A stretch of DNA of 64,000 nucleotides from a virus (taxonomy: Duplodnaviria; Heunggongvirae; Uroviricota; Caudoviricetes), in the IMG/VR virus record IMGVR_UViG_3300023179_004209, positions 167,832 to 231,831 of that record, one strand, 5' to 3'. Shown piece by piece: positions 22,009 to 35,186 of the stretch. The notes under the pieces were generated by a model, which was not told the DNA's origin, ran no database searches, and saw only the letters and a program-made list of their open reading frames with translations. A program made the translations under genes and the position numbers. Position 1 is the stretch's first letter, and each line of letters begins with the position of its first letter.

Positions 22009-22239
22009 TTATGATACTTTATGACGAGTTTCGTTGTATTCAACTAACTCAATTTTAGTACCATCAGGCCACTTCTTAACAATGCCAGACCAATGATCAA
22101 ATTCAGTCTTAGCATCATTCTTATTAGTATATACTAACTCACTTACTCTCAACCCACTTCGTGTAACTACATAACATTTTTGTTCTGTAGTAACATTACT
22201 TTCTGCACCGTTTTCTTTTTTATTAGTCTTTTTAGACAT
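22009..22239 (-). CDS. Hypothetical protein
   Basis: 76 aa ORF, plausible composition. Confidence 0.65.
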   Translation of the reverse strand: MSKKTNKKENGAESNVTTEQKCYVVTRSGLRVSELVYTNKNDAKTEFDHWSGIVKKWPDGTKIELVEYNETRHKVS

Positions 22240-22312
22240 ATTAACTATATAGTTTAATTGTTATTACTTTGGTTTTAATGTAAAAATTTATGATAACCAG
22301 TCATAAATTAAA

Positions 22313-22510
22313 TCATTCATCGTCACCTTCAATATCTTTTGAAGATGCCAATGGAAGTGAATTTGTTTCTTCAACAATAGCTTTAATTTCGCTCTCAATC
22401 TCTTTCATCTTTTCTTTATAACCAGCAGCTACATCCTTGAAATCTTTCTTCACAAAGATTAACTTTTCTGTCAACTCATACACTTTCTTTTCTGCTTCTT
22501 GTTTTGTCAT
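22313..22510 (-). CDS. Small coiled-coil hypothetical protein
   Basis: 65 aa ORF. Confidence 0.65.
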   Translation of the reverse strand: MTKQEAEKKVYELTEKLIFVKKDFKDVAAGYKEKMKEIESEIKAIVEETNSLPLASSKDIEGDDE

Positions 22511-22550
22511 ATACTATATTTTATTATTTGTTTTTACTTATTACCGAAAT

Positions 22551-22935
22551 TGGTGGACATAAAGGGAGTCGAACCCTTGTCTTTAAAACAGTATCATAAT
22601 CAGACTACGTGTGTATACATTTTTTAGTTGTTAAGAACAATTATATTAAATGTCAAAACTAATTGTCCTAAAGATTTACAAAATATTCAACCAACAACGC
22701 AAATCAAATTGTTGATATAGCCTGATAGTTTACACTCAATATTATTATCAGACATCATAATATCAAATGTGCAGCCAAATTAGGCTGCTAGTGCTACTGC
22801 ATCACGGGAGGTGAAGTTGTAGCTGATTACATTATCTTCAGCAGTTAATGTTTTGATAGAAGTTTTAAGAGGCCAACTATCATCCTCTACACGCCTAACT
22901 AGTCAATTGTCTTAAATCGAAACCAGTATATGCCC
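22551..22935 (-). ncRNA. ssrA: tmRNA; tag AEDNVISYNFTSRDAVALAA encoded at 22780-22842
   Basis: 5' GGGCATA pairs with 3' TATGTCC-ACCA with a G3:U70 Ala wobble; T-arm AAGGGTTCGACTCCCTT; tag ORF ends ALAA-stop within the GCAGCC/GGCTGC hairpin. Confidence 0.95.
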
Positions 22936-22943
22936 ATAAATTC

Positions 22944-23198
22944 TCAAAGATCAAAAAATTCTTTATACGAAATTGTTTCATCCAACCCTAATTCTCGTCT
23001 CATATTTGCAAATAACTCTTTACCTCTTTCAACAGAAACTGGTTGGTTTAATTCTTCTCTTTTAATATCTTTAATAACAATTTCTATCTCACGACGAATT
23101 CTATTAGATTCAATCGGATTATTATCCTTTGTTTCTAACTCGTCTTGTAATTGACTCAATTTATTTTTTAAGTCATTTAACTTTTTATTTGTATTCAT
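22944..23198 (-). CDS. Hypothetical protein
   Basis: 84 aa ORF between tRNA array 1 and tmRNA. Confidence 0.65.
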   Translation of the reverse strand: MNTNKKLNDLKNKLSQLQDELETKDNNPIESNRIRREIEIVIKDIKREELNQPVSVERGKELFANMRRELGLDETISYKEFFDL

Positions 23199-23226
23199 TC
23201 TTATAAATATATAAATATTTTAAAAA

Positions 23227-23300
23227 TGGAGCGGGTAGCCGGAATCGAACCGGCACATCGACCTTGGCAAGGTTGCAGGCTACCACTACATCATACCCGC
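23227..23300 (-). tRNA. tRNA-Gly(GCC)
   Basis: Cloverleaf, loop TTGCCAA, encoded CCA. Confidence 0.9.
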
Positions 23301-23309
23301 TTACAAATT

Positions 23310-23384
23310 TGGTGGACCGTAAGAGAATCGAACTCTTCCCTAAAGCTTGCAAAGCTCCCGTGCTACCACTATCACTAACAGCCC
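23310..23384 (-). tRNA. tRNA-Ala(TGC)
   Basis: Cloverleaf, loop TTTGCAA, G3:U70, CCA. Confidence 0.9.
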
Positions 23385-23443
23385 ATATCTATTAAAGAAC
23401 TTACACCAATATATAGTATAAGTCAAATCAAAAAACAAAAATC

Positions 23444-23559
23444 TATCAGACACCTTGACGGTTTTATGGGCATATTTAACCCACAGATTATTAGCCAAAC
23501 ACAGCCGTTGGTTATTGTTTCGGACCTAACCAAGTTCAAACCTCTACCTTTGTCTGATA
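23444..23559 (-). ncRNA. Putative structured non-tRNA RNA inside array 1
   Basis: Terminal 9-bp stem TATCAGACA/TGTCTGATA enclosing hairpins TTGGTTA/TAACCAA and TGGG/CCCA. Confidence 0.5.
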
Positions 23560-23566
23560 TAAAAAA

Positions 23567-23642
23567 TGGTCGGAATGACAGGACTCGCACCTGCAACCTC
23601 CTAGCTCCAAACCAGGCCGTCTACTATTGACATTACATTCCG
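23567..23642 (-). tRNA. tRNA-Pro(TGG)
   Basis: Cloverleaf, loop TTTGGAG, T-loop variant TGCGAGT, CCA. Confidence 0.88.
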
Positions 23643-23649
23643 ATTAAAT

Positions 23650-23723
23650 TGGCAGGGGATAAGGGAATCGAACCCCCACAAGAAGATTCAAAGTCTTCCG
23701 CACTACCATTATGCAAATCCCCA
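23650..23723 (-). tRNA. tRNA-Gln(TTG)
   Basis: Cloverleaf, loop CTTTGAA, CCA. Confidence 0.9.
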
Positions 23724-23730
23724 GTTAAAT

Positions 23731-23804
23731 TGGAGCGGGTAGAGGGAATCGAACCCTCTCATGGGCTTTGGAAGAGCCCCAGGCTACCGTTACATCACAC
23801 CCGC
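23731..23804 (-). tRNA. tRNA-Gly(TCC)
   Basis: Cloverleaf, loop CTTCCAA, CCA. Confidence 0.9.
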
Positions 23805-23811
23805 TTTAAAA

Positions 23812-23901
23812 TGGCGGAAAGAGAAGGATTTGAACCTTCGGGGGTTTTAAGGCCCCGGAGCTTTAGCAAAGCTCTGCATTAGACCACTCTGCCACCTTTC
23901 C
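23812..23901 (-). tRNA. tRNA-Ser(GCT)
   Basis: Long variable arm, loop TTGCTAA, CCA. Confidence 0.92.
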
Positions 23902-23984
23902 GTAAAATTTTGACAATCTCTGATTTCTTCATGGGACGATATTATCAGTCCTCAGTTCCAATGTCAAGTGGAGTTGTATTAAAA

Positions 23985-24071
23985 TGGCGGAAGCAGTAGG
24001 ACTTGCACCTACGAGGGTTTCTGGCCCCAGGCGTTTTCAAGACGCTTTCCTCGACTAGCCGGACTACTTCC
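23985..24071 (-). tRNA. tRNA-Ser(TGA)
   Basis: Long variable arm, loop CTTGAAA, atypical D-arm, CCA. Confidence 0.82.
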
Positions 24072-24082
24072 GTAAAATAAAT

Positions 24083-24160
24083 TGGTGGACCAGGTGAGAA
24101 TCGAACTCACATCAGATTGATTGCAAATCAGTCTCGCTTAGCCTTAGAACATGCTAGCCC
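24083..24160 (-). tRNA. tRNA-Ala(TGC), divergent copy
   Basis: Loop TTTGCAA, G3:U70, atypical D-arm, CCA. Confidence 0.75.
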
Positions 24161-24171
24161 ATAAAATAAAT

Positions 24172-24256
24172 TGGTGGGCATAGAGGGACTTGAACCCCCA
24201 CGGATTGCTCCACGAGCTTCTAAGACTCGCATGGCTGCCAATTACATCATACGCCC
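24172..24256 (-). tRNA. tRNA-Leu(TAG)
   Basis: Long variable arm, loop CTTAGAA, CCA. Confidence 0.92.
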
Positions 24257-24263
24257 AATAAAA

Positions 24264-24341
24264 TGGTCGGAATGATAGGATTTGAACCTACGACATCTTG
24301 CTCCCAAAGCAAGCGCTCTAGCCAAACTGAGCTACATTCCG
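24264..24341 (-). tRNA. tRNA-Pro(TGG)
   Basis: Canonical cloverleaf, loop TTTGGGA, CCA. Confidence 0.93.
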
Positions 24342-24348
24342 ATTAAAA

Positions 24349-24423
24349 TGGTAGGCGGTAAAGGATTTGAACCTCTGGCCTTGACCGTGTAAAGGTCCTG
24401 CTCTTCCACTGAGCTAACCGCCC
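24349..24423 (-). tRNA. tRNA-Val(TAC)
   Basis: Canonical cloverleaf, loop TTTACAC, CCA. Confidence 0.92.
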
Positions 24424-24455
24424 ATTTAAAAATCGTTATTTAACTTATTCCAATT

Positions 24456-24552
24456 ATCGCCAGTTGGGTTCTGCACTAAACATAACACCCAGTGACCGAT
24501 CAAGTGTTTTAACTTTCGTTGGGGACACCAGATAGAGTTTCAACCCCGAACA
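24456..24552 (-). ncRNA. Conserved structured leader RNA, copy 1 (5' of tRNA array 1)
   Basis: Homologous to 33477-33590: TTGAAACTCYATCTG, TTGATYGGTC, TGGGTGTTATGTT...TGCAGAACCCA...GGCGAT, with compensatory stem changes. Confidence 0.7.
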
Positions 24553-24559
24553 TGTATTT

Positions 24560-24587
24560 AATTTACCACACCTTCTCATTTTGTCAA
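24560..24587 (-). promoter_or_regulatory. Sigma70-type promoter of tRNA array 1
   Basis: TTGACA-16bp-TAAATT with extended -10 TG. Confidence 0.7.
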
Positions 24588-24592
24588 CACCT

Positions 24593-24635
24593 AAAAATCA
24601 AAAACCCGTCATTCTTTTTTTGAAGTGACGGGTTG
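24593..24635 (-). terminator. Attenuator terminator 1
   Basis: AACCCGTCA..TTC/GAA..TGACGGGTT stem plus TTTGATTTTT. Confidence 0.85.
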
Positions 24636-24662
24636 GTTCTTTAAGAGCAAACAACCTCGCAC

Positions 24663-24716
24663 TCAACTTCCGGATGGGAGTTGACTTGCTTGACTAGGTT
24701 GTGAAACTGAATTCAT
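24663..24716 (-). CDS. Leader peptide 1 MNSVSQPSQASQLPSGS (17 aa)
   Basis: Manual translation; preceded by TATATATT promoter-like motif; stop codon overlaps the antiterminator strand; composition matches array 1 tRNAs. Confidence 0.8.
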   Translation of the reverse strand: MNSVSQPSQASQLPSGS

Positions 24717-24758
24717 ACTATGACAATATATATGTAAAAATTTTTGAAATCAACAAAT

Positions 24759-26117
24759 TTATTTACATTTTATTAAATTTTTAAACTTGTCTAATACTGA
24801 TGACTTGGTTTCAACAATAAAATTATTCTTGTTATTAACCAATTTAATTTCATTAATCACTGGCTCATTTGGTACTGGACCTACAGGTACGGCATTACCA
24901 TATGAATTGATTGGTGGCCACCATCCACCCAAATTCTTCAATAAATTATTTGTATCAACATTAATATTATTTTCTTGAATTATAATATTTTTAAATGCAG
25001 GCGTAGATAAATTCAAATCTCTATCCATACTGTATCCCAAAAATATTCCATCCCATGGTGCATACTTTCCTGGCTTCCAATTCCATGTTCCTTTACCAGT
25101 TGTTTTAACATTATTGTTTCTAATAATCAAATCATGATGATATGCATAGTTTACCGCCCACCATTCATTGCCATATTGTCTTACATAGTTTTGCGCACTT
25201 AATCTAATAAAACAAGGAACTTCTAGTCCACTATTTTCTTCGACAATTGTTCCAATATTCATTCCAGTGTCAACATAATAACACATTCCTTGAAATCCAT
25301 CAAAGTTATTTTTTCTAATCACCGCACCTTTTGTATTAGCAACACTAATACCAGCTAATGGAGAAAATTGTGTTTTACCAGCGTCACCTCTAAATGTACA
25401 ATATTCAACTAAACATTGTGCAGCAAACACTTTACCAGCCAAATGTCCACCTACTTGTACATGTACAATTTGTTCTGTATCATGTTCTGGATATCTATTA
25501 TTTCTGCCTGGTGAATGAAAATCGCATCTTCTTACAGTAGTTCCTTTTGCACCATCTTTTGAATTCTTTGATAATAATGATATGATAATAAATGATGTGG
25601 CATTATCTTTACCCACATTAAATCCTTTAAATTCACAATCTTCATATAATGTATTACTACCAAATGTAGTACAACCGGCAGTGGTTAATTCACCGCCTTT
25701 AGCTTCATTTATTTCATCATAGTTACCGTCAAAAGTAATTCCTTTAAATACTATGTTCTTACAATCTACACTACCATCACCACCAGGTCCAACTGCCTGA
25801 ACCATAATCAATTGATTTCCATTTACCGCCAAATCTCTTCTACCACTTAAATATTTGGATAATTTTAAAATTGTTTTACCTTTACCCTTTCCAATTATTT
25901 GAACTCCTGATTCATTTTGTTTTGGATTCCAACCCCATAAAATACCACTTTTTAATACCTTTTCTGGATCATTTTCACTGATTCCTTCTCCACCAATATA
26001 ATATGTACCTTCATCAAGTTCACAAATATTATTTTCCATTATACACTTATTGATTGCGTATGCGGAGTTTACTTTTATATCATTTGGCTTTGCGCCATAT
26101 TGTTCTGGTTTACTCAT
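24759..26117 (-). CDS. Right-handed parallel beta-helix protein (pectate-lyase-like; possible depolymerase)
   Basis: 452 aa; N-terminal EQYGAKPND motif, G.GKGKTILK, repeated xExNxF/IxNN beta-helix rungs. Confidence 0.6.
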   Translation of the reverse strand: MSKPEQYGAKPNDIKVNSAYAINKCIMENNICELDEGTYYIGGEGISENDPEKVLKSGILWGWNPKQNESGVQIIGKGKGKTILKLSKYLSGRRDLAVNGNQLIMVQAVGPGGDGSVDCKNIVFKGITFDGNYDEINEAKGGELTTAGCTTFGSNTLYEDCEFKGFNVGKDNATSFIIISLLSKNSKDGAKGTTVRRCDFHSPGRNNRYPEHDTEQIVHVQVGGHLAGKVFAAQCLVEYCTFRGDAGKTQFSPLAGISVANTKGAVIRKNNFDGFQGMCYYVDTGMNIGTIVEENSGLEVPCFIRLSAQNYVRQYGNEWWAVNYAYHHDLIIRNNNVKTTGKGTWNWKPGKYAPWDGIFLGYSMDRDLNLSTPAFKNIIIQENNINVDTNNLLKNLGGWWPPINSYGNAVPVGPVPNEPVINEIKLVNNKNNFIVETKSSVLDKFKNLIKCK

Positions 26118-26139
26118 ATATTATATTCCTTCTATATAA

Positions 26140-26177
26140 ACTAAAAACCTGCCATCCTTTTTGAATGACAGGTTTAC
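26140..26177 (-). terminator. Intrinsic terminator
   Basis: AAACCTGTCATTC-AAAAAA-GGATGGCAGGTTT-TT. Confidence 0.75.
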
Positions 26178-26196
26178 AATTTATATTTTTATTTTA

Positions 26197-26301
26197 TTAT
26201 CTAGCTCCACTTGGTTTTGGAGTTCCACTTGGCTTTGGTGTGCCTGTTGGTTTTGGAGTTGAACTTGGAGTACCACTTGGTTTTGGAGTTGGTGTTGGCA
26301 T
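26197..26301 (-). CDS. Small TPKPSG-repeat peptide (34 aa)
   Basis: MPTPTPKPSGTPSSTPKPTGTPKPSGTPKPSGAR; AAAGGA upstream; synonymous variation between repeats; downstream terminator. Confidence 0.65.
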   Translation of the reverse strand: MPTPTPKPSGTPSSTPKPTGTPKPSGTPKPSGAR

Positions 26302-26344
26302 AAACTATATATTCCTTTCTTTAGAGATACATATTACTCAAAAA

Positions 26345-26380
26345 TAAAAAACCGTTAACTTTTTACGGTTAACGGTTGTA
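26345..26380 (-). terminator. Intrinsic terminator after outer-membrane barrel gene
   Basis: ACCGTTAAC/GTTAACGGT stem followed by T tract. Confidence 0.7.
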
Positions 26381-26402
26381 ATTCTTTATTTTAATTTTAC
26401 TA

Positions 26403-27089
26403 TTAGAATGTGTACTTAACACCTGCGGAATATAGAACTTCAGCAGTCAATTCTTCAGTAGCAAAACGGTACTTAGCAGTACTAAAGTTGTTGTCAATTA
26501 CACCAACTTCAGCATATGGTACAAAGTTACCAATTGGACGAGATACATTCAACTTGGCAGTAACTGCATCATATCGTTCAAACTTTACGAATTCAGCAGA
26601 TGGAGTTGCCTTGAATCCATATGGCAGACTAAATGTATGATACGCACCAAAACCTGCACCAGCTTGTTCTAGGTTAATGTCATAAGCACCACGAACATAT
26701 GGAGTCAACCATGGATTCTGTGCTTCCAATTTTACACCAAATTCAGTGGAATTCTTAATACCAAATCCACCGGCTTGGTGACGAGTAGCAGTTGCATCCA
26801 AACGAAGGGTCAACCATTCAAAGGTCTTTACACCCTTACCTGTACCAACTGTCCAGTGGGATTGATCAACACCATCCTTTGGCAATAACAAACCACTAAC
26901 ATATACATCCGCATACTTTAGTGACTTTACCGCAGCAAAACCAACATATGCAGAACCTTCTGCACGACTAACACCGTTAACGATGTATTGGTTATTGTAT
27001 CCAGCATCAAGAGTCAATGATGCAGTATCTTCTGCGGTTACGGCGACAGCTGCGAAAAGAGCAGCCAATACTAATACTAGTTTCTTCAT
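26403..27089 (-). CDS. Outer-membrane beta-barrel protein (putative porin)
   Basis: Sec signal MKKLVLVLAALFAAVAVTA, alternating amphipathic strands, C-terminal GVKYTF BAM signature; higher GC than neighbours. Confidence 0.8.
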   Translation of the reverse strand: MKKLVLVLAALFAAVAVTAEDTASLTLDAGYNNQYIVNGVSRAEGSAYVGFAAVKSLKYADVYVSGLLLPKDGVDQSHWTVGTGKGVKTFEWLTLRLDATATRHQAGGFGIKNSTEFGVKLEAQNPWLTPYVRGAYDINLEQAGAGFGAYHTFSLPYGFKATPSAEFVKFERYDAVTAKLNVSRPIGNFVPYAEVGVIDNNFSTAKYRFATEELTAEVLYSAGVKYTF

Positions 27090-27301
27090 ATTTATTTATT
27101 ATTTATCTTTAATGTTTTTGTTTAACTAATAAACTTCACTCAAAGTTTATTTACTTAACTTATTCATCATACATTGATCTTCAAGAATATCAACTTATTA
27201 TATAATGACAGTTCTGAACATAACTATCACTCCCATTTTATAAAAATTAAAAATAATTTTAACCCATTATTTATCTATATATAAAAAACTATTTTACATT
27301 T

Positions 27302-28114
27302 ATGGATAATATTACAACTGAAAAACCTTCGTTCATCAAACAATTAGATGCAAAAAAATTAGTAAATAATTTGATAGTACCCATCATTTTTTTAGGTCTA
27401 ATTGTTTATTTTGTATTCTTAAATAACAGTTATAAAAACCTAACAGGTAAATTCAATAAACAAACCGAAATCGTTTCAAATCAAAATTTGCTCATTACAA
27501 ATCTTAATTTAAAAAATTCAGAACTATCCACTGTAATTAAAAATTATGATCAAAAATTCAGCTTTTTACAAACAAATGTAGCACATTTACAACAACTTAC
27601 AGATAACTTAAAAAAGTCATCTGAAGACAAGGATATTAAAATTAAATTGCTTGAACAAGAAAAAGGAGCACTAGAATCTGATGTCAAATCACTTCGTAAT
27701 ACTATAGTAAAAATGACCGCAGAAATCGTAGAATATAGCGACGAATTGAAAAAAGCCAAAACTGAAACTGAGCAAAATGATCTAATAAACAAGATTACAA
27801 AGCTCACTGAAGAAAGAAATTTCCTACAAGATCAAGTCAAACAATATGAAAAAATCATCGACGACTTAAGAAAAGAAAACACCTTTTTAGCAGCAAAATT
27901 AAGAGAAAATCTCAAAAAAGAAGGTTATGAATTCAACTCTCCAATAGGTACTTGGCCGAAAGGAGCCGAAGCATTAATGAAAATTTCCAGAGAAAATCTA
28001 AAGAAAAAGCTGGATGAATTGAACAAAATCAAAGAAAAAGAAGAACCAAAAAAAGAAGAAAAAAGTGATGAAAAACCCAAAAAACAAGGGTTTTTTAGAA
28101 ACCTTTTCAAATAA
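27302..28114 (+). CDS. Membrane-anchored coiled-coil protein
   Basis: 270 aa; single N-terminal TM, long heptad region. Confidence 0.7.
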   Translation: MDNITTEKPSFIKQLDAKKLVNNLIVPIIFLGLIVYFVFLNNSYKNLTGKFNKQTEIVSNQNLLITNLNLKNSELSTVIKNYDQKFSFLQTNVAHLQQLTDNLKKSSEDKDIKIKLLEQEKGALESDVKSLRNTIVKMTAEIVEYSDELKKAKTETEQNDLINKITKLTEERNFLQDQVKQYEKIIDDLRKENTFLAAKLRENLKKEGYEFNSPIGTWPKGAEALMKISRENLKKKLDELNKIKEKEEPKKEEKSDEKPKKQGFFRNLFK

Positions 28115-28127
28115 ATAAATACAAATT

Positions 28128-28601
28128 ATGCCATACGAATACCACGCAAAAGTAACAGAAGTTGTTGACGGAGATACCATTGTCATTGATATTGATTTAG
28201 GTTTTGATGTCATCTTTACCAAACAAAAAGTACGACTTTTAGGAGTTGATACCCCAGAAAGTCGTACCGCAGATAAAACCGAAAAAGTATTTGGTTTAGC
28301 AAGCAAAGACTATGTAAAAAAATTTATTGAGTCTTGTCCTGATAAACATGTCATTATTAGAACCCATGTCAGTGATGATGTAGATAGTAACGGTAGAGAG
28401 AAATTTGGCCGTCTTTTAGGTGAAATCATACAACCTGACACCAAAAAAGTACTCAATGACGAACTTATCAATAACGGTTACGCCGTTCGTTATATGGGCG
28501 AAAATAAAGATAAAGTAAAAGACCTCCACCTAAAAAATCGTAAACGACTCATAGATGAAGGTCTCGTTAAAATGTCTTATAAAGACGCTGGTATACTATA
28601 A
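28128..28601 (+). CDS. Thermonuclease (SNase-like) family nuclease
   Basis: VVDGDTI, VRLLGVDTPE and KFGRLLGEI motifs. Confidence 0.9.
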   Translation: MPYEYHAKVTEVVDGDTIVIDIDLGFDVIFTKQKVRLLGVDTPESRTADKTEKVFGLASKDYVKKFIESCPDKHVIIRTHVSDDVDSNGREKFGRLLGEIIQPDTKKVLNDELINNGYAVRYMGENKDKVKDLHLKNRKRLIDEGLVKMSYKDAGIL

Positions 28602-28609
28602 AAATACCA

Positions 28610-30127
28610 TTATTCAATTACAGTAAACTTCAAACTTCTAATAAGGAGTTTGAAGTTTTTATCTTTTACATTATTCAAAACTAATTTAATTGATTTTGGA
28701 TATCCCACAAATTTAGTATTCAAATCAGTTGTCAATGACTGCGGTCCAGTTCCTATTGTAATTGGAAAATCATGAGATGTATCAATACCCTTATCTGGTT
28801 GTCTACCATCTAAAATATTAACACGACCAACATAATTACCATTTACATATACACTAATTTTAAATTTATCAACATATGAAATTGGACCAGTTTCAACCGT
28901 CAATATTGACAATTTTGACTTTAAATTTAGTAATTCTTTGATTTTATCACTTTCTGGAATATCCAACACAACTCCAGCAGATGTTAATGTTCCGGTAACA
29001 GGAACTGTAACTGTCTTCGGAATATTTGTATTAATATTAGAAATTAACTTAACAGGTTCATCAGATGGTGATTGATACTTTACATTAGTCATTTTAGTAA
29101 CAATATCTTTTACAGTTACCTTTACAGGACTACCATCAATATCAGTATATGTATATTCTTGTTTTCCCCAAGGACCATTGATATCTGGCATTTCATTTTT
29201 ATACAATGACCAAATACGATCTATATTTCCATGATGCATAAAGAATATAGGATCGTTAGCTGCATATCTCAATGTTCCCATCGTTCTATTACCACCATAA
29301 CGAGTTCCTACCCAATCGTGTCCATTGTTATGTGGTCCTTGTTCCAATAAACCTTGACCAGTATTTCTATCAGTGACTGACTTACCACCGAAAATTTCAA
29401 ATGGTGCCTGTAAAATAGCATTAATATAATCACTACTCATATACCACTTGGTTTCAATAATATGTTGTTTTGAATCTGGACTTACTTCATTATTAGGGTC
29501 CATAGTTGGTTCCGCAATAGATGGCTTTCTATTACCATCATATAATGCCAAATTATCAAAATCCAGATTATCTGCACTTACCATATCTTCTTGAGTCAAA
29601 TCATATCCAAATAATGGACTAGATAAACCAGATTGTTTACGATTCTTTGTATTAGGCATTTCTTGATGATTACTCCAATCCCAATATGGATATGCAAAAG
29701 CAACACCGTTCCATCCAAAATTAGTCTTTAAAATATTATCCAATATTCTTTCCAAGAAATAAATATATCCACGATGCCATGGCAAAAAGTACCAACTCCA
29801 ATGTACTTGATCCATAGGAACACCTGAATCTGTACAATGATACGCATGCAATTTAGCATAGTTTTCCCATTGTGTAGGACTATTCAATGGTACATTTCTA
29901 CGCATATATCCAACTGCACGACACAAATTCTTTACTTCATCATCCGTCAAATCATAAAAACTCTTACGAATTCTTGTCGGTTCATTATTAAAATTAAACC
30001 TCTTACCACCAACAGCAGGTCCACATGTTGGATCATTAATCGGTTGTTTAGATGCCGCATTTAAATTTAATCCAAGTGTACTAGTAAGTAACCCAGACTT
30101 TAAAAAAGTTCTTCTTGTTGTATCCAT
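28610..30127 (-). CDS. Tyrosinase/polyphenol oxidase with Tat signal
   Basis: TRRTFLK twin-arginine signal; CuA HAYHC...HWSWYFLPWHR; CuB HNNGH...DPIFFMHHGNIDRIW. Confidence 0.9.
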   Translation of the reverse strand: MDTTRRTFLKSGLLTSTLGLNLNAASKQPINDPTCGPAVGGKRFNFNNEPTRIRKSFYDLTDDEVKNLCRAVGYMRRNVPLNSPTQWENYAKLHAYHCTDSGVPMDQVHWSWYFLPWHRGYIYFLERILDNILKTNFGWNGVAFAYPYWDWSNHQEMPNTKNRKQSGLSSPLFGYDLTQEDMVSADNLDFDNLALYDGNRKPSIAEPTMDPNNEVSPDSKQHIIETKWYMSSDYINAILQAPFEIFGGKSVTDRNTGQGLLEQGPHNNGHDWVGTRYGGNRTMGTLRYAANDPIFFMHHGNIDRIWSLYKNEMPDINGPWGKQEYTYTDIDGSPVKVTVKDIVTKMTNVKYQSPSDEPVKLISNINTNIPKTVTVPVTGTLTSAGVVLDIPESDKIKELLNLKSKLSILTVETGPISYVDKFKISVYVNGNYVGRVNILDGRQPDKGIDTSHDFPITIGTGPQSLTTDLNTKFVGYPKSIKLVLNNVKDKNFKLLIRSLKFTVIE

Positions 30128-30128
30128 A

Positions 30129-30329
30129 TTATTTTATTTTAGTATTAACCCAACCAATTCGATGTTTACACATCCAATCAATCAATGCCTTTTCAAATCC
30201 TATATCATTACCTTTCTTTTCGCTTTCAATCCATTTATGTTTTTCTATTTCCTTCTTCAATTCCATAAATTTTTGATATAGATTAGAATTTTGCATACAA
30301 AAATAAATACAACTCTGAAACATAAACAT
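30129..30329 (-). CDS. DUF4032-like small protein
   Basis: EIEKHKWIESEKKGNDIGFEKALIDW motif; real start probably the later Met (MQNSNL). Confidence 0.65.
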   Translation of the reverse strand: MFMFQSCIYFCMQNSNLYQKFMELKKEIEKHKWIESEKKGNDIGFEKALIDWMCKHRIGWVNTKIK

Positions 30330-30351
30330 AACAAATTTATTTATCTAAAAA

Positions 30352-30426
30352 TGGAGTCCCGTGTTGGATTTGCACCAACCTAATACTGTTTTGCAGACAG
30401 TTGCCTAACTACTCGACCAACGAGAC
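30352..30426 (-). tRNA. tRNA-Cys(GCA)
   Basis: Loop CTGCAAA, U73, CCA. Confidence 0.88.
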
Positions 30427-30432
30427 ATTAAA

Positions 30433-30507
30433 TGGAGCCTGTTACTAGAATCGAACCAGTGCTTTCTCGTTACGAAGGAGAAGTGCTACCACTATCACTA
30501 AACAGGC
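30433..30507 (-). tRNA. tRNA-Thr(CGT)
   Basis: Loop TTCGTAA, C2-G71, CCA. Confidence 0.85.
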
Positions 30508-30515
30508 ATATTAAA

Positions 30516-30592
30516 TGGAGCCTCATTCCAGACTTGCACTGGATTCTCAAGTTTACCGAACTTGCATAATAAACTACTTATACGAATAAGGC
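30516..30592 (-). tRNA. tRNA-Thr(GGT)
   Basis: Loop TCGGTAA (C33 atypical), CCA. Confidence 0.78.
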
Positions 30593-30600
30593 ATTTAAAA

Positions 30601-30677
30601 TGGCACACCCGGTAGGACTTGAACCTACAACCTTCTCGGTAGAAACGAGTTGCTCTATCCAATTGAGCTACGAGTGC
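30601..30677 (-). tRNA. tRNA-Arg(TCT)
   Basis: Canonical cloverleaf, loop TTTCTAC, CCA. Confidence 0.9.
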
Positions 30678-30684
30678 GTTAAAA

Positions 30685-30761
30685 TGGTAGGGTAGAGGAG
30701 ATTCGAACTCCTGACCTTCTGTGTGTAAAACAGACGCTCTCCCGAATTGAGCTACCACCCC
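30685..30761 (-). tRNA. tRNA-Val(TAC)
   Basis: Canonical cloverleaf, loop TTTACAC, CCA. Confidence 0.92.
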
Positions 30762-30772
30762 GTTATATAAAA

Positions 30773-30846
30773 TGGTTGACCGTGCCGGTTACGCTCCGGC
30801 GTAGGACGATTATCAGTCGTCTATTCTGCTATTGAATTAACGGTCA
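30773..30846 (-). tRNA. tRNA-Ile(GAT)
   Basis: Loop CTGATAA; atypical T-loop AGCGTAA; CCA. Confidence 0.8.
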
Positions 30847-30853
30847 ATTGAAA

Positions 30854-30927
30854 TGGCGGCCATACGGGGTTACGCTCCCCGGACTTCCCTTAGACAGAGG
30901 GTTAGGTTACTATTACTTTATATGGCC
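30854..30927 (-). tRNA. tRNA-Asp(GTC)
   Basis: Loop CTGTCTA; G73; atypical T-loop AGCGTAA; CCA. Confidence 0.78.
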
Positions 30928-30932
30928 AAAAT

Positions 30933-31010
30933 TGGTGCTGTGCTCTCCACGCCGTCTCTGTGTTTTACCGATTGTACCGGTCGGCAGTCACTTATGGGGC
31001 CAGTTACCCA
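30933..31010 (-). ncRNA. CCA-ending non-canonical RNA in array 2
   Basis: GC-rich ~78 nt unit spaced like its tRNA neighbours and ending GCACCA, but with no cloverleaf; hairpins TGGG/CCCA, ACCG/CGGT and GCCG/CGGC. Confidence 0.4.
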
Positions 31011-31016
31011 TTAAAT

Positions 31017-31095
31017 TGGTGGAGCCAGTGGGTAATGCTCCCACACGAATCGTCCGGTTAAAAGCCGGCTGCCCGTCTATTGTGGCTTTGACTCC
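31017..31095 (-). tRNA. tRNA-Lys(TTT)
   Basis: Loop CTTTTAA; atypical D- and T-loops; CCA. Confidence 0.8.
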
Positions 31096-31101
31096 ATAAA
31101 T

Positions 31102-31217
31102 TGGTGGTCTAGGTATGGACTTTAACCATACATTCACTGCTTTCGTTTCGGATTGATTACCGTATCCAGCAGCCCTGCGTTTAAATTTCGCCCGATCTTG
31201 CGTTGATCTACTAGACC
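31102..31217 (-). ncRNA. Oversized tRNA-like RNA (116 nt)
   Basis: Perfect acceptor GGTCTAG/CTAGACC-ACCA, D-like GATC/GATC arm, T-like GTATGG/CCATAC arm, very large variable region, no standard anticodon loop. Confidence 0.65.
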
Positions 31218-31226
31218 ATCATAAAT

Positions 31227-31305
31227 TGGTGCAAGTGGTGGGTACTGCCCCCACACGAATATTCTGATTAAGAGTCAGATGCCCGTCTATTGTAGCTTCA
31301 CTTGC
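31227..31305 (-). tRNA. tRNA-Lys(CTT)
   Basis: Loop CTCTTAA; same atypical D-arm as Lys(TTT); CCA. Confidence 0.82.
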
Positions 31306-31344
31306 ATTAAAAATTGTATCTACTACTGTCAATGAACTATAAAC

Positions 31345-31372
31345 ATCTTAACACATTATTTAGTTCCGTCAA
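31345..31372 (-). promoter_or_regulatory. Internal sigma70-type promoter in array 2
   Basis: TTGACG-16bp-TAAGAT with upstream A-tract. Confidence 0.6.
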
Positions 31373-31388
31373 CAACTTTCTTAAAAAA

Positions 31389-31464
31389 TGGTCCCAGTTG
31401 TTGGTTCCGCCCCAACCTCTATTCGTCTTCAGCGAATCGCTTTCACTAGGTTAGCTTAACTGGG
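31389..31464 (-). tRNA. tRNA-Phe(GAA)
   Basis: Loop CTGAAGA; atypical T-loop; CCA. Confidence 0.8.
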
Positions 31465-31477
31465 ATTATAGATAAAT

Positions 31478-31556
31478 TGACAAGTCAAAGGAATCGAACC
31501 TTCTCGGAACAGAGTCGCCCGCTCCTTTACCACGCCATGCGCACTAGCACCTGTCA
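31478..31556 (-). ncRNA. Degenerate tRNA-like RNA (canonical T-arm, no CCA)
   Basis: TGACAGG/CTTGTCA stem, GAAGG-TTCGATT-CCTTT T-arm, no recognisable anticodon loop. Confidence 0.45.
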
Positions 31557-31561
31557 AATTC

Positions 31562-31667
31562 TGATTGCGTGGTTGGAATCGAACCAACGGCCCGTGCTTA
31601 TTCACACTTTTACGGTGTCATTTACCATCATAGTGAGCACTGATCTACCTCTGAACTACACACAATC
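31562..31667 (-). ncRNA. tRNA-like RNA with 37-nt expanded anticodon loop
   Basis: Normal acceptor, D- and T-arms; anticodon stem GTGCT/AGCAC closes a 37-nt loop with an inner ACAC/GTGT hairpin. Confidence 0.6.
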
Positions 31668-31672
31668 TAAAA

Positions 31673-31759
31673 TGGTGGGAGCAGTAGGACTTGCACCTAC
31701 GAAGGCCTTTCGGCCGGGAGATTTACAGTCTCCAGCAATTGCTACTATGCGATACTCCC
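31673..31759 (-). tRNA. tRNA-Tyr(GTA)
   Basis: Long variable arm, loop CTGTAAA, CCA. Confidence 0.9.
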
Positions 31760-31764
31760 AAAAA

Positions 31765-31890
31765 TGGCTCCAGAGGAGGGTTTCGAACCCCCAACCCTGC
31801 GGTTAACTTTGGCCTTGTGAGATTTGCACTCTCTATTAAATAATACTTTATGGCCCACAGCCGCATGCTCTACCATTGAGCTACTCTGGA
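31765..31890 (-). tRNA. tRNA-Asn(GTT) interrupted by a 51-nt insertion in the anticodon
   Basis: Removing GTGGGCC...GGCCAAA restores the canonical 75-nt tRNA with loop CTGTTAA. Confidence 0.75.
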
Positions 31891-31891
31891 A

Positions 31892-32368
31892 TTAAATTGT
31901 CAATAAACCTGCGTGAACTTCTCCGTGACAATTATGACATAATAACTCACACTTGTCAACTTCTAATTTTAACTTATCAAAACTAACAGATTGTCCACTA
32001 ATTTGAAAATCTTTTTGTAAAGGATCTTTATGATGAAATGTAAGATTACCAAAATAATTTTTGTATCCACACTTTATACACTTACCGCCTTTATATTCAA
32101 CTAATTTTTGTTTAGTTCTTACTCTCCAATCAACAACGGATTTTACTCTTCTGGTTTTTCTTTCTTCATTCGTTAATTTATTTTTGCCTACCGGTCTAGT
32201 ATTTAGATACTTTATCAGAGTTCCTCTACAATGTCCATATTTTTTTTGACAATCTCTTAAAGAATTTCCATCGTCATAAAATGCTTGAATTTCTTTAAGT
32301 TCAGAATCAGTGATTGTTTTAATCCCCGCTAAAATTCTTTTTTGTTTTATAATATCAGATGTTACCAT
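31892..32368 (-). CDS. HNH endonuclease (free-standing, inside tRNA array)
   Basis: CIKCGY...LTFHHKDP...KCELLCHNCHGEVH motif; N-terminal HTH-like segment. Confidence 0.9.
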   Translation of the reverse strand: MVTSDIIKQKRILAGIKTITDSELKEIQAFYDDGNSLRDCQKKYGHCRGTLIKYLNTRPVGKNKLTNEERKTRRVKSVVDWRVRTKQKLVEYKGGKCIKCGYKNYFGNLTFHHKDPLQKDFQISGQSVSFDKLKLEVDKCELLCHNCHGEVHAGLLTI

Positions 32369-32435
32369 ATAATTAACTTTCTATGTTAATAAATAGGTAA
32401 CAGGTTAACAAAACAATTATAATTTTATTAGAAAA

Positions 32436-32509
32436 TGGCTCCCAAGGAAGGACTCGCACCTTCACAAGAACGTTAACAGCGTTCCGTGCTACTTTGACAC
32501 TACTCGGGA
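32436..32509 (-). tRNA. tRNA-Asn(GTT)
   Basis: Loop CTGTTAA, G73, CCA. Confidence 0.88.
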
Positions 32510-32628
32510 ATTTTTAAAAATTAAACGTTTACTGGATTTCACTATGCTTGTTCCACCTACTAATCATAACCTCGTCAGATTATAACCTTCAATGTCTATC
32601 AGTGTCAATACATTACTTACTACTTCAA

Positions 32629-32701
32629 CTATTGATTCAGATTCGAACTGAATGACTCCTGCATATGGTGCAGTTGCTTTACCAGTTAAGCTACGTTCGT
32701 T
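32629..32701 (-). pseudogene. Pseudo tRNA-Met/Ile2(CAT)
   Basis: D-, anticodon (ACCATAT) and T-arms intact, but the acceptor strands do not pair and there is no CCA. Confidence 0.55.
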
Positions 32702-32726
32702 GCCTTCACCTAATGTATTTGAAAAA

Positions 32727-32804
32727 TGGCATCCACCGTAAGAATCGAACTTACCCACGGGCTTTTGGAGAGCCTGTCGCCTAATCCTTGGAACATTGGC
32801 GGAT
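32727..32804 (-). tRNA. tRNA-Trp(CCA)
   Basis: Loop CTCCAAA, G73, CCA. Confidence 0.82.
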
Positions 32805-32814
32805 ATACTATAAA

Positions 32815-32891
32815 TGGTAGTCGCATGGGGATTTGAACCCTATTCTCCATCTTGAGAGGATGGTGTCCTATCACACATAGACGATGCGACC
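32815..32891 (-). tRNA. tRNA-Glu(CTC)
   Basis: Loop CTCTCAA, CCA. Confidence 0.88.
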
Positions 32892-32901
32892 GTTAAATAT
32901 T

Positions 32902-32989
32902 GTGACGAGATTACCCCAGTAGGAATTACCCGGCATGCAAGGGCTCCTTCAATCTTTTGGGTTTAAGTCTCTTTGTTGCCCTCGTCACT
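32902..32989 (-). ncRNA. Putative structured RNA between the Glu tRNAs
   Basis: Terminal 8-bp stem GTGACGAG/CTCGTCAC enclosing a GC-rich interior. Confidence 0.45.
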
Positions 32990-32996
32990 TTTAAAA

Positions 32997-33074
32997 TGGT
33001 AGCCCCACGGGGAATTGAACCCACGATTTGTAGATTGAAAGTCTACCGTCCTATACCCATTAGACGATGAGGCC
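32997..33074 (-). tRNA. tRNA-Glu(TTC)
   Basis: Loop CTTTCAA, CCA. Confidence 0.9.
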
Positions 33075-33085
33075 ATTATATAAAT

Positions 33086-33163
33086 TGGCGCTTCAGTGAG
33101 GATTCGAACCCCAAACTCAACGTTCGTAGCGTTGCGTGATAAATCCATTTTCACCACCGAAGC
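33086..33163 (-). tRNA. tRNA-Arg(ACG)
   Basis: Loop CTACGAA, CCA. Confidence 0.9.
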
Positions 33164-33169
33164 ATAAAT

Positions 33170-33245
33170 TGGTTACCCCACTTGGATTTTCACCAAGGTT
33201 GATGTCTCAGAGAACACATCCGTCCTAAACCTAGACGATAGGGTA
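33170..33245 (-). tRNA. Atypical Glu-like tRNA with 10-nt anticodon loop
   Basis: Glu/Asp-type D-arm TCGTCTA..AGGAC, stem GATGT/ACATC closing GTTCTCTGAG, CCA. Confidence 0.55.
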
Positions 33246-33253
33246 ATTAAAAT

Positions 33254-33332
33254 TGGGGTGTACGGCGGGATTCGAACCCGTATCTGCCAGACTCACAATC
33301 TGGGACATTATTCCAGTTATGCTACATACACC
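33254..33332 (-). tRNA. tRNA-His(GTG)
   Basis: Loop TTGTGAG, G-1:C73, CCA. Confidence 0.9.
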
Positions 33333-33344
33333 ATTACTATAAAT

Positions 33345-33419
33345 TGGAGCCTCCTTCCGGGCTTGCGCCGAACTCTGGGGTTTACAAAACCTCTGCATCG
33401 CTGCCTATGCTTAGGAGGC
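33345..33419 (-). tRNA. tRNA-Thr(TGT)
   Basis: Loop TTTGTAA, C2-G71, atypical T-loop, CCA. Confidence 0.85.
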
Positions 33420-33476
33420 ATCTAGAAAATTACTTCATACTTGCCTTAACACAGTAATCACCTCAGTAATACTGTC

Positions 33477-33590
33477 ATCGCCCTATGGGTTCTGCATCTC
33501 AACATAACACCCACGGACCAATCAATTGATTTTCCCAGTCTTTAACCTTTGGTTACTGGCGGCGGCTCAACAGATGGAGTTTCAAGCCTT
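33477..33590 (-). ncRNA. Conserved structured leader RNA, copy 2 (5' of tRNA array 2)
   Basis: Homologous to 24456-24552, with covarying stems. Confidence 0.7.
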
Positions 33591-33605
33591 ATCTAATCTT
33601 CACTA

Positions 33606-33633
33606 AGTCTATCAGAACTTCAGAGTTCGTCAA
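33606..33633 (-). promoter_or_regulatory. Sigma70-type promoter of tRNA array 2 (second candidate TTGAAG-16-TAGATT at 33696-33723)
   Basis: TTGACG-16bp-TAGACT with upstream A-tract. Confidence 0.7.
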
Positions 33634-33727
33634 CAACTTTTTAAAATTTTCTTTTCATCATCCAATGAACTACTTACGTCGTTCACTGTTTAACTAATCT
33701 ACCACACTTACAAAGAACTTCAAGAAC

Positions 33728-33766
33728 AAAAACAAAAAACCGTCACTTTCTTCTCAGGTGACGGTT
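33728..33766 (-). terminator. Attenuator terminator 2
   Basis: AACCGTCAC/GTGACGGTT 9-bp stem plus TTTTGTTTTTG. Confidence 0.85.
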
Positions 33767-33796
33767 GACATTGTTTAAATTTCTCTACACTCAAGT

Positions 33797-33874
33797 TTAT
33801 ACAATATCACCGTCAACACATTCACAATTTGTAAATGTATCCCAACGCTTAATATTTGTATAATGTACTCTCAT
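33797..33874 (-). CDS. Leader peptide 2 MRVHYTNIKRWDTFTNCECVDGDIV (25 aa; alternative start 33883)
   Basis: Manual translation; TATATATA motif upstream; last codons form the antiterminator; composition matches array 2 tRNAs. Confidence 0.82.
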   Translation of the reverse strand: MRVHYTNIKRWDTFTNCECVDGDIV

Positions 33875-33918
33875 TATAATCATATATATAAACAAAAAAT
33901 AAAAAACACCAAACTATT

Positions 33919-34326
33919 TCATCTTTTTACACTTTTTCTCACCATACTCACCACACTGCTGCCATAATCCCTCTCTACCTCAAACCCAAACCGACCATAA
34001 AACCGCATCAACCGCTCATCACCTCCTCCATCATCATCACTACTAGGTATACACCGTATATCTAACCCATTAATATCCGCAAACTCACACAACCGCCCCA
34101 TAACCTCCCCACCTACGCCCTGCCCACGATACTCCTCCCTCACATACATATCACTCAAATACACACTGCCACTGTCATTTATATACACTCCAAACCTATC
34201 TATCTGTATATACTCATTTATCACATTTCTCTCAAATACCTCTATTTTCTCATTTATTGTATCCATATATCTATATATCCTTTTTTCCCATAAAAAAATT
34301 TTACCCCAGGATTTTTTAAGTTTCAA
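33919..34326 (-). CDS. GNAT-family N-acetyltransferase
   Basis: VYLSDMYVREEYRGQGVGGEVM motif A and LMRFYGRFGF motif B; true start probably downstream of the ORF-track start. Confidence 0.85.
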   Translation of the reverse strand: MKLKKSWGKIFLWEKRIYRYMDTINEKIEVFERNVINEYIQIDRFGVYINDSGSVYLSDMYVREEYRGQGVGGEVMGRLCEFADINGLDIRCIPSSDDDGGGDERLMRFYGRFGFEVERDYGSSVVSMVRKSVKR

Positions 34327-34632
34327 TACGAAAATTCAAAAAAATAGGGTACCAAAACAGTGTTTAAAACAATTATACATATGCTAAAATCCCCAAAGAA
34401 AAATTGACTCCGTATCTAAAAGAAGCATCGTTGGGCTGGGGGGGCTGCTGCGCTCTATGTTAAGCAGTAGGGGATGCTGGGTGGGTAGGGCCGTCAAGTT
34501 ATTATAAAGTGTAGCCTACCCTACCGGCATGGGGTTGTCAAGTATATAATGCGGATGGGGTGGCTGGGTGGTGGGGCGTGTAGGGTTTTGATATAGGGTG
34601 ACCCATAACCTATGTGTATATGTATATATGTA

Positions 34633-35133
34633 TTAGGCCCACTCAGTGAAGTTCATAGGTTGTCCGTTCCAAGGATATGCGGAAGCGTAACTGGCGATCT
34701 TGAAGCTGGGTTTGTTGTTATAGTAGTTGAGGCGCTTGGTGATGACCTTGTTACCTTTGTTGTTGAGGTTAGGAACGCAGTTACCTTGCATTGGACCAGT
34801 GTAAGTGCGATCTTCGCCGATGGAGACTACTTTGACACTGGATTTGGTTACTTCGACGACCATGTAGAAGTCAATGTTGGTTTGGTCGTAGCCCCAGCTG
34901 GAATAAAAGATATCATTGACTTTGACGGGGTTGGATTGGGGAACTTCCTTCAGGTTATCTTTGGTGGTGACGATGACATTGAAGCGGTGGTTTTCGTGGC
35001 TGCAGTAGACATAACCCTTACGGTTGACTTTGTAGACGGTGAGGGTTGAGCCAGCGGGGATGACGGTTTTGGAAGCGTCAACGGTGATGATGTCAACGAT
35101 GTTGGTGACGGTGGAGTAGCGTTTGATGGCCAT
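34633..35133 (-). CDS. Hypothetical early protein
   Basis: 166 aa; DIFYSSWGYDQTNIDFYMVV motif; own promoter. Confidence 0.75.
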   Translation of the reverse strand: MAIKRYSTVTNIVDIITVDASKTVIPAGSTLTVYKVNRKGYVYCSHENHRFNVIVTTKDNLKEVPQSNPVKVNDIFYSSWGYDQTNIDFYMVVEVTKSSVKVVSIGEDRTYTGPMQGNCVPNLNNKGNKVITKRLNYYNNKPSFKIASYASAYPWNGQPMNFTEWA

Positions 35134-35186
35134 GGTATTGTTTATTTTATCAGGTTTGACGGGGGTGATTCCCTTACCGTGAGAAC

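Follow-up and report, generated by a model that had tools for sequence, protein, structure and literature searches.

The window analysed here is a 64,000-nucleotide (nt) stretch, bases 167832-231831 of the 295.8-kb IMG/VR phage record IMGVR_UViG_3300023179_004209 (G+C 31.7%), and near-identical DNA is found mainly in freshwater, lake and river metagenomes. The minus strand of the window carries a transfer-messenger RNA (tmRNA) gene and two arrays of transfer RNA (tRNA) genes, with a third array 46 kb past the window's end. In front of each of the two arrays lies a small unit consisting of a promoter, a short open reading frame (ORF) and an intrinsic terminator, and it is these two units, candidate attenuators of the tRNA genes behind them, that are described here. 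In the order in which they would be transcribed, the features of unit 1 and array 1 are:

24725-24753, minus strand: promoter of leader 1 (TTGATT, 17 nt, TATATT), inside a conserved TATATATT motif
24663-24716, minus strand: leader ORF 1, 17 codons plus stop (ATG at 24716, TGA at 24665-24663), reading MNSVSQPSQASQLPSGS
24696-24702, minus strand: segment 1, ACAACCT (Ser-Gln-Pro codons), able to form a protector helix with AGGTTGT of segment 2
24664-24683, minus strand: nested hairpin in leader 1, the arms of which covary among relatives
24651-24665, minus strand: segment 2, the 5' strand of the antiterminator, beginning at the stop codon
24600-24634, minus strand: intrinsic terminator 1, segments 3 and 4 with a U tract at 24600-24604, -15.0 kcal/mol
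24560-24587, minus strand: second promoter (TTGACA, 16 nt, TG-n-TAAATT), immediately after terminator 1
24452-24548, minus strand: copy 1 of the shared structured leader RNA, with covarying helices
23227-24423, minus strand: tRNA array 1, with Val, Pro, Leu(UAG), Ala, Ser(UGA), Ser(GCU), Gly(UCC), Gln, Pro, Ala and Gly(GCC)

Those of unit 2 and array 2 are:

33883-33912, minus strand: promoter of leader 2, with a weak -35 element (TTGGTG) and, 8-10 nt upstream of the ATG, a TATATATA -10 region
33797-33874, minus strand: leader ORF 2, 25 codons plus stop (ATG at 33874, TAA at 33799-33797), reading MRVHYTNIKRWDTFTNCECVDGDIV
33818-33838, minus strand: hairpin inside ORF 2, in which ACA TTT ACA (Thr-Phe-Thr) pairs with TGT GAA TGT (Cys-Glu-Cys)
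33801-33817, minus strand: segment 2, the 5' strand of the antiterminator, formed by the last six codons
33734-33774, minus strand: segment 3 (33758-33774) and intrinsic terminator 2 (33738-33766), with a U tract at 33734-33739
33606-33723, minus strand: promoters behind terminator 2 (TTGAAG, 16 nt, TAGATT at 33696-33723; TTGACG, 16 nt, TAGACT at 33606-33633)
33473-33590, minus strand: copy 2 of the shared structured leader RNA, with covarying helices
30352-33414, minus strand: tRNA array 2, from Thr(UGU) to Cys, interrupted by an HNH-like ORF

The tRNA content was called with ARAGORN (default and lowered thresholds), from Rfam tRNA matches and by inspection by eye. Array 2 begins with Thr(UGU), His, an odd tRNA with an 8-nt anticodon loop, Arg(ACG), two copies of Glu, Trp and a tRNA with a CAU anticodon, and its remainder holds Asn, Tyr, Phe, two copies of Lys, Asp, Ile(GAU), Val, Arg(UCU), two of Thr and finally Cys. 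An initial annotation, made from the sequence alone, had given array 1 the amino acids G, A, P, Q, S, L and V and array 2 the amino acids T, H, E, R, W, N, Y, F, K, D, I, V and C; both sets proved correct, as did its statement that Val is shared, a Val(UAC) gene being found in each array.

Promoters and the proposed terminator switch

The same layout is found at both arrays, as the initial annotation had described it: a promoter motif, the ORF, an antiterminator and terminator, a sigma-70 promoter, a shared leader RNA of ~100 nt and then the tRNAs. The genome of 296 kb has just two places, at arrays 1 and 2, where a TATRTATW motif is followed within 3-10 nt by the ATG of an ORF of 8-45 codons and then by a strong terminator, and the architecture is retained in ~50 contigs of related phages. 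The -10 element of leader 1 ends 8 nt before the ATG, and the mRNA would be leaderless or nearly so; no Shine-Dalgarno sequence lies upstream of either leader ORF. The spacing and motif of this promoter are kept in relatives, and the promoter of leader 2 reads TTGACA or TTGATA, 17 nt, TATATA in its relatives. At both units and in the related phages the ATG is preceded, at a distance of 5-10 nt, by conserved -35 and -10 elements with a spacing of 16-18 nt.

The motif is not confined to the leaders: the genome has ~20 long ORFs with no visible Shine-Dalgarno sequence, two of them in the baseplate-gene region, in which TATATAT(T/A) lies upstream of the ATG at a distance of 3-15 nt; those in the window are 15868-16887, 19655-20797, 22944-23198 (minus strand) and 57212-57574 (plus strand). 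Leaderless or near-leaderless messages therefore seem to be usual for this phage, with TATATAT(T/A) as a candidate class of phage promoter giving rise to them. Our guess is that TATATATT is a late promoter. The T4 late type motif TATAAATA does not share this placement before long ORFs, and PHROGs and Pfam searches of the neighbouring genes gave a single baseplate match.

In unit 1, segment 2 pairs with 24622-24636 at -15.1 kcal/mol, compared to -8.8 kcal/mol for shuffles, and it changes along with the terminator in the related loci L133, L007 and L021. Segment 3 of unit 2 includes the 5' arm of the terminator, and its 15-bp pairing with segment 2 is predicted at -20.3 kcal/mol, a value reached by 0 of 300 shuffles; the terminator itself is at -12.6 kcal/mol. 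The terminator lies ~60 nt after the stop codon in both units. Folds of the full length give pairing inside the ORF (the protector) together with the terminator, and when the RNA is truncated at the terminator loop, the point of decision, the antiterminator appears instead in most of the lineages folded, both window copies included, though not in L007 and L127. The pairing of segments 1 and 2 of unit 1 is part of the minimum free energy structure of L007, L021 and L133 but not of the window copy, and in the L127 lineage the hairpin inside ORF 2 is replaced by a different, compensated one.

Relatives were collected with DNA patterns taken from the shared RNA, which gave 51 related stretches in IMG/VR, and three whole tRNA regions added more; a loose pattern, TTGAAACTCNATCTG, gave mostly chance matches, which were then filtered by blastn. 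Their terminators fall into six classes: array 1 has three and a G002 type besides, array 2 has one, and the distant phage G001 has its own. Across these classes the cognate duplex of segments 2 and 3 has a predicted energy of -12.6 to -25.1 kcal/mol, its mean with non-cognate arms being -6 to -13 kcal/mol, and the cognate value is reached by 0-10 of 300 shuffles per lineage. Segment 2 overlaps the stop codon or begins no more than 8 nt after it in all six (6/6). In L098 one position is altered in all three strands together: segments 2 and 4 have T in place of C, and segment 3 has A in place of G. Folds, duplex energies and covariation therefore all point to an antiterminator which uses the 5' arm of the terminator and excludes it, and the stop codon is so placed that a terminating ribosome could mask the antiterminator strand.

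Four metatranscriptome runs were compared with 23000-34500, as assembled contigs, from which starts, ends and levels are unreadable. Terminator 2 is bridged by contigs of two RNA libraries (33503-33833 and 33668-33905); their identity is 93-95%, so they come from relatives, and the lack of cover on several neighbouring protein genes in run X17 argues against pure DNA carry-over. These contigs are a weak hint of read-through transcripts.

Conservation and composition of the leaders

A search of related phages for a short ORF and terminator before the tRNA arrays, as the initial annotation had proposed, found leaders in nearly all stretches with enough upstream sequence. Five diverged lineages have array-1 leaders of 17 codons, among them MILSSQPSLVSQAPSGY, MLNTVSQPSSSQVPQGT and MLNNVQPSASSQSPNGD, and in three much more distant ones the array-1 leaders have 21-24 codons (MNMKNSLQSSLLVLAGQPSLT, MKNQSVQSSVVAGQSSPALLPSLS and MNISSVQSSVANGQPSPSLLPSAS). 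Array-2 leaders have 24-28 codons, with every change of length in frame. Synonymous third-position changes are seen for Lys (AAG/AAA), Arg (CGT/CGC), Thr (ACA/ACC) and Val (GTA/GTC/GTT), and together with the in-frame insertions and deletions they are indirect signs that the leaders may be translated. In L158 the stop codon lies in another frame over homologous antiterminator bases, therefore conservation at the 3' end concerns the RNA and not the peptide. The distant phage G001/L019 has a single mixed tRNA region of 18 kb, preceded by a 33-codon leader with 16 amino-acid types and an antiterminator that overlaps the stop codon. A further variant is found at L157:8930-9237 (minus strand) and L152:1-249, where a 66-codon ORF has been joined, without a change of frame, to what is left of the array-1 leader, its last 13 codons, with the same stop codon and the attenuator structures kept; this same-frame fusion is another indirect sign of translation.

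The initial annotation had claimed that each leader peptide is composed almost only of the amino acids of its own array. Both peptides read exactly as it gave them, and a recount bore out its figures: 15/16 non-initiator residues of leader 1 belong to the array-1 set, with 7/7 amino acids present, and 23/24 of leader 2 to the array-2 set, with 13/13 present and S, Q, P, A and L all missing. It had also proposed a comparison with random small ORFs. Of the 876 ATG ORFs of 15-20 amino acids in the genome as a whole (296 kb), leader 1 alone attains 15/16 residues from the array-1 set, and all 13 amino acids of array 2 occur in one of 634 ORFs of 22-30 amino acids, presumably leader 2 read from its in-frame upstream ATG. 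In a model of independent and identically distributed residues the probability of at least 15/16 is 1.5e-5 and that of at least 23/24 is 2.6e-4, and when in-set count and full coverage are taken jointly these become 3e-6 for leader 1 and 5.5e-6 for leader 2. Chance is an unlikely explanation of the composition.

The three most distant array-1 leaders, which have 53-56% nt identity to that of the window and peptides that can barely be aligned to it, keep all 7 amino acids and have 15/20, 21/23 and 20/23 residues in the set; neutral drift simulated from the window ORF gives a mean of 51-53% in the set (P = 0.045, <0.0002 and 0.002 respectively). Over eight lineages the central part of the array-1 leaders is in the set at 110/114 positions (96%), all four exceptions being Asn, and codons 2-4 with the last codon are off it at 19/32 positions, which is the background of 60% (in-set background 40%), with the caveat against the argument that the boundaries between core and termini were chosen after seeing the data and with regard to the positions at which stalling of a ribosome might count. 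To the extent that sequence can tell, it would therefore appear to be composition rather than sequence that the diverged relatives of array 1 have kept.

For array 2 the part of the leaders before the antiterminator strand is in the set at 130/135 positions, none of the 13 amino acids is missing at a divergence of 15-24% (P = 0.12 to 0.03 per lineage), and the single His and single Tyr have been relocated, not lost. This evidence is weaker because the array-2 leaders are clearly homologous to one another.

The partition of tRNAs between the arrays is almost invariant among relatives, and the few relocated tRNAs gave a mixed answer to the question, raised by the initial annotation, of whether leader content follows such moves: it does for Leu, Gly is neutral, and Cys and Gln(CUG) are not followed. 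In this genome 73% of Leu codons are UUR and 2% are CUC. Where tRNA-Leu(UAG) is the only Leu tRNA of the array, the central part of the leader uses CUN; in G003, where tRNA-Leu(CAA) and (UAA) have joined array 1, the leader has CTA, TTG and TTA; and in G002, where array 1 has Leu(GAG, UAG, CAA, UAA), the leader codons are CTG, TTG, TTA, CTC and TTG, five for four tRNAs.

Probable attenuation and its alternatives

Taken together, architecture, conservation, covariation and the composition comparison support the view that the two units are probably ribosome-mediated transcription attenuators of the trp/ilv type which gate the tRNA arrays. This was the reading of the initial annotation, and a promoter of its own for each unit, the conservation of the ORFs, the antiterminator at the stop codon and the kept composition all speak for it. 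Each unit would be self-contained, with a promoter, a leaderless ORF of 17 or 25 codons and a terminator whose 5' arm is open to an antiterminator at the stop codon. With a ribosome at the stop codon the antiterminator strand would be covered, so that the terminator would form and transcription would stop after a short RNA. A ribosome stalled earlier, with the tRNA for a leader codon scarce or uncharged, would leave that strand free to capture the 5' arm of the terminator, and RNA polymerase would read on into the tRNA array. Each unit could thus act as a sensor of supply that adds transcription of a short tRNA block and shuts off once supply is back, and since its sensing part is spelled almost only in the amino acids of its own array it would sense exactly that block. 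Translation of the ORFs, their leaderless start, stalling-dependent read-through and the physiological trigger are what we infer from these features. The trigger might be starvation or a nuclease of the PrrC, RloC or PARIS type, as the initial annotation had proposed. It may also be that TATATATT-type promoters, shared with genes of the baseplate region, make the attenuators the main route to tRNA once host-type promoters are shut off.

The initial annotation had gone further and proposed that nearly the whole code is monitored. This needs qualifying, as the match does not extend to synonymous codons and a third array has no attenuator:

277362-280821 of the genome, outside the window: third tRNA array, with Arg, Lys, Glu, Met, Ile(UAU), Leu(CAA), Leu(UAA) and Ile(UAU)

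The third array has a plain promoter, and leader ORF, attenuator and shared RNA are all absent from it. It carries Leu(UAA/CAA), Ile(UAU) and Met, and the codons of these tRNAs, ATA and TTR among them, are sampled by neither leader.

A number of observations weigh against the attenuator reading, and several of them would favour attenuators that are real but sense general translation capacity or the coupling of transcription to translation (ribosome availability, infection phase), the composition being a by-product of RNA structure and ancestry. Each amino acid is sampled by one to few codons and not by runs as in his, trp and leu, therefore sensitivity to partial starvation would be low. Synonymous codons match the array anticodons no better than genome usage predicts, with 11/16 and 22/24 codons readable by the anticodons of the leader's own array and 10.9 and 20.9 expected, and the match of leader to array would appear to lie at the level of amino acid and codon box. 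Several relocations of tRNAs are not mirrored: the L139 and L155 leaders have lost Cys and tRNA-Cys is still in the array, Gln(CUG) tRNAs occur in some array-2 copies without a Gln codon in the leader, and G002 has a doubtful tRNA-Cys in array 1 and the Cys codon in its array-2 leader. Furthermore, hairpins dictate parts of both peptides, so that residues are not independent samples: the Thr-Phe-Thr (ACA TTT ACA) and Cys-Glu-Cys (TGT GAA TGT) codons are reverse complements and come as a package, the Pro and Gly of leader 1 form a CC/GG hairpin, and the last 3-6 residues are set by the antiterminator. The relatives are also homologous, which leaves few effective independent cases. It would nevertheless seem unlikely that general capacity is what is sensed, as the diverged leaders keep 75-91% of their residues in the set where drift would leave 51-53%, and the Leu codon box follows the Leu isoacceptors of the array. 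Nor does structure alone account for the residues chosen; Thr and Arg codons, which contain G or C and are helix-friendly, are absent from the array-1 leaders, in which Ser, Gln and Leu dominate, and GC-rich structured RNA was rejected as the cause of the array-1 composition on this ground.

A second group of observations concerns promoters. A strong sigma-70-type promoter lies right behind each terminator and further near-consensus ones lie inside both arrays, therefore the arrays do not depend on read-through and the attenuators can only add transcription; in a classical attenuator no promoter stands between attenuator and genes, and here one does. The promoters behind the terminators carry TG-extended -10 elements, and those inside the arrays are:

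23939-23967, minus strand: internal promoter of array 1
32579-32608, 31931-31959 and 31345-31372, minus strand: internal promoters of array 2

That the arrays own promoters would suit a view of the ORFs as independent genes for micro-proteins or small RNAs, with ordinary terminators and fortuitous antiterminator pairings, as would the conserved core of the array-2 peptide (I-K-R-W, T-F-T) and the L157 variant, which encodes a 66-amino-acid protein; the 66-codon ORF of L157 and L152 is of ordinary mixed composition, a further point against leaders that spell their array. This view is quite improbable, given that the array-1 leaders diverge almost fully in sequence with their composition kept, that the antiterminator follows the terminator in all six classes and always at the stop codon, that the architecture is found only at tRNA arrays, and that the frame shift of L158 keeps the RNA and not the peptide. 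A simpler idea, that the leader terminator is merely the 3' end of the upstream gene, was rejected, as L133, L007 and G002 each have a separate terminator for the upstream gene, placed ahead of the promoter of the leader.

A switch operated by a protein or an RNA (uncharged tRNA as in the T-box, or a factor like TRAP or PyrR), with the reading frame incidental, has very little to recommend it: similar switches that work without translation exist and no Shine-Dalgarno sequence precedes the ORFs, but many long ORFs of the phage also lack one and begin 3-15 nt after the same motif, the in-frame insertions and deletions and synonymous substitutions suggest translation, the stop codon has a fixed position relative to segment 2 in all lineages, and a cmscan of 21000-36000 at E <= 1 returned tRNA, tmRNA and a few weak sub-threshold chance matches, none of them to a T-box or leader family and none in the leader regions.

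Leader-peptide attenuators that respond to several amino acids are known from enterobacteria, where the ilvGMEDA leader reads Ile, Leu and Val and the thr leader reads Thr and Ile. The phage units resemble these in having a promoter-proximal short ORF that names several amino acids, mutually exclusive 1:2, 2:3 and 3:4 pairings, an intrinsic terminator and a segment 2 that is masked by a ribosome at the stop codon. They differ in what is controlled, blocks of tRNA genes instead of biosynthetic enzymes, and in sampling 7 and 13 amino acids, mostly with one to three codons and without runs; their mRNA is apparently leaderless, a strong promoter follows the terminator, and they form a phage-borne pair that divides the code. 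With trpL, hisL, leuL and pheL (Rfam RF00513, RF00514, RF00512 and relatives) they share the logic of the switch and the ~60 nt from stop codon to the end of the U tract, but they have no similarity to these in sequence or covariance model, no run of a single codon, and tRNA as their output. The pheST attenuator, with its pheM leader, controls phenylalanyl-tRNA synthetase and is alike in that a gene of the decoding apparatus is placed under leader-peptide attenuation which reads the state of the matching tRNA; it differs in concerning one amino acid, a synthetase instead of tRNA genes, and a cellular instead of a viral genome. T-box riboswitches (RF00230) likewise let the supply of a specific tRNA set the decision between terminator and antiterminator and control genes for aminoacyl-tRNA supply, but a T-box recognises uncharged tRNA by direct binding and works without an ORF, and the phage units show no T-box features.

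What is new in the two units is the tRNA-gene target, the breadth (7 and 13 amino acids, mostly by single codons), the pair dividing the code, and the phage setting. Full-text searches of the literature gave no account of tRNA genes, whether of viruses or of cells, under leader-peptide attenuation. For tRNA genes the promoter is generally regarded as the only point of control, through growth rate and the stringent response, and the role of tRNA sets in phages is debated, with compensation for codon usage, replacement of degraded host tRNAs and escape from anticodon nucleases all proposed. If the attenuator reading is true, the units would be direct sequence evidence of a phage that gauges decoding capacity and responds by making the tRNAs that match, classic attenuation would be extended from amino-acid supply to tRNA supply, and the leaders would offer a natural multi-input sensor of the state of translation. 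The chances are about even that large phages carry a homeostatic sensor of decoding capacity of this kind, in which mini-ORFs spell the tRNA repertoire and top up just that block, with two sensors splitting 19 amino acids in the phage described here.

Other features of the locus

The structured RNA shared by both units lies between the second promoter and the first tRNA of each array. It is ~90-118 nt long (97-118 in the window) and has homologues in ~50 loci, such as L007:2257-2344 and L019:4090-4203. RNAalifold found helices with real covariation, in which 4/20 pairs have double changes and one pair shows four types, GC, UA, AU and CG. It has no match in Rfam, and could be an element for processing, stability or sensing. 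In L009, L011, L016, L018, L168 and G003 (L173, reverse strand) a conserved ORF of 55 amino acids (MENNVDKDTQYEY...) is found between the second promoter and the shared RNA; a tRNA-Val precedes this ORF in most of these loci, and the attenuator lies upstream of all.

Cultured relatives were sought by blastn in distant mode with both leader regions against 50,697 phage records, with 0 matches. The phage tmRNA gene (22551-22935, minus strand; tag AEDNVISYNFTSRDAVALAA) lies ~290 nt 3' of array 1 on the same strand, and the two are possibly co-transcribed.

Array 2 holds several unusual features. The odd tRNA-like gene at 33170-33245 (minus strand) has an anticodon loop of 8 nt, in which ARAGORN reads the 4-base anticodon 'ctct', and it is kept at the same place in at least 10 related contigs. 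It may be like Arg(UCU) with an expanded loop, or a quadruplet decoder. The ORF that interrupts the array is:

31892-32368, minus strand: HNH-like ORF, with CxxC and HH motifs recognised by eye

A Pfam search at E <= 0.001 gave no match for this ORF. It is adjoined by a copy of tRNA-Asn(GUU) (31765-31890, minus strand) which has a 51-nt insertion in its anticodon loop. Exactly those 51 nt (31805 to 31857) are skipped by RNA-library contigs in three libraries, and the region of the HNH-like ORF (31893 to 32432) is skipped by contigs of two RNA libraries. Splicing could account for this, as could relatives without the insertions.

Between the two arrays, on the minus strand, lies cargo that is unusual for a phage, a signal-peptide ORF and a tyrosinase-domain protein (26403-27089 and 28610-30127). 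The signal-peptide ORF has no match to a Pfam family and by eye resembles a beta-barrel outer-membrane protein, and the N-terminus of the tyrosinase-domain protein resembles a twin-arginine signal.

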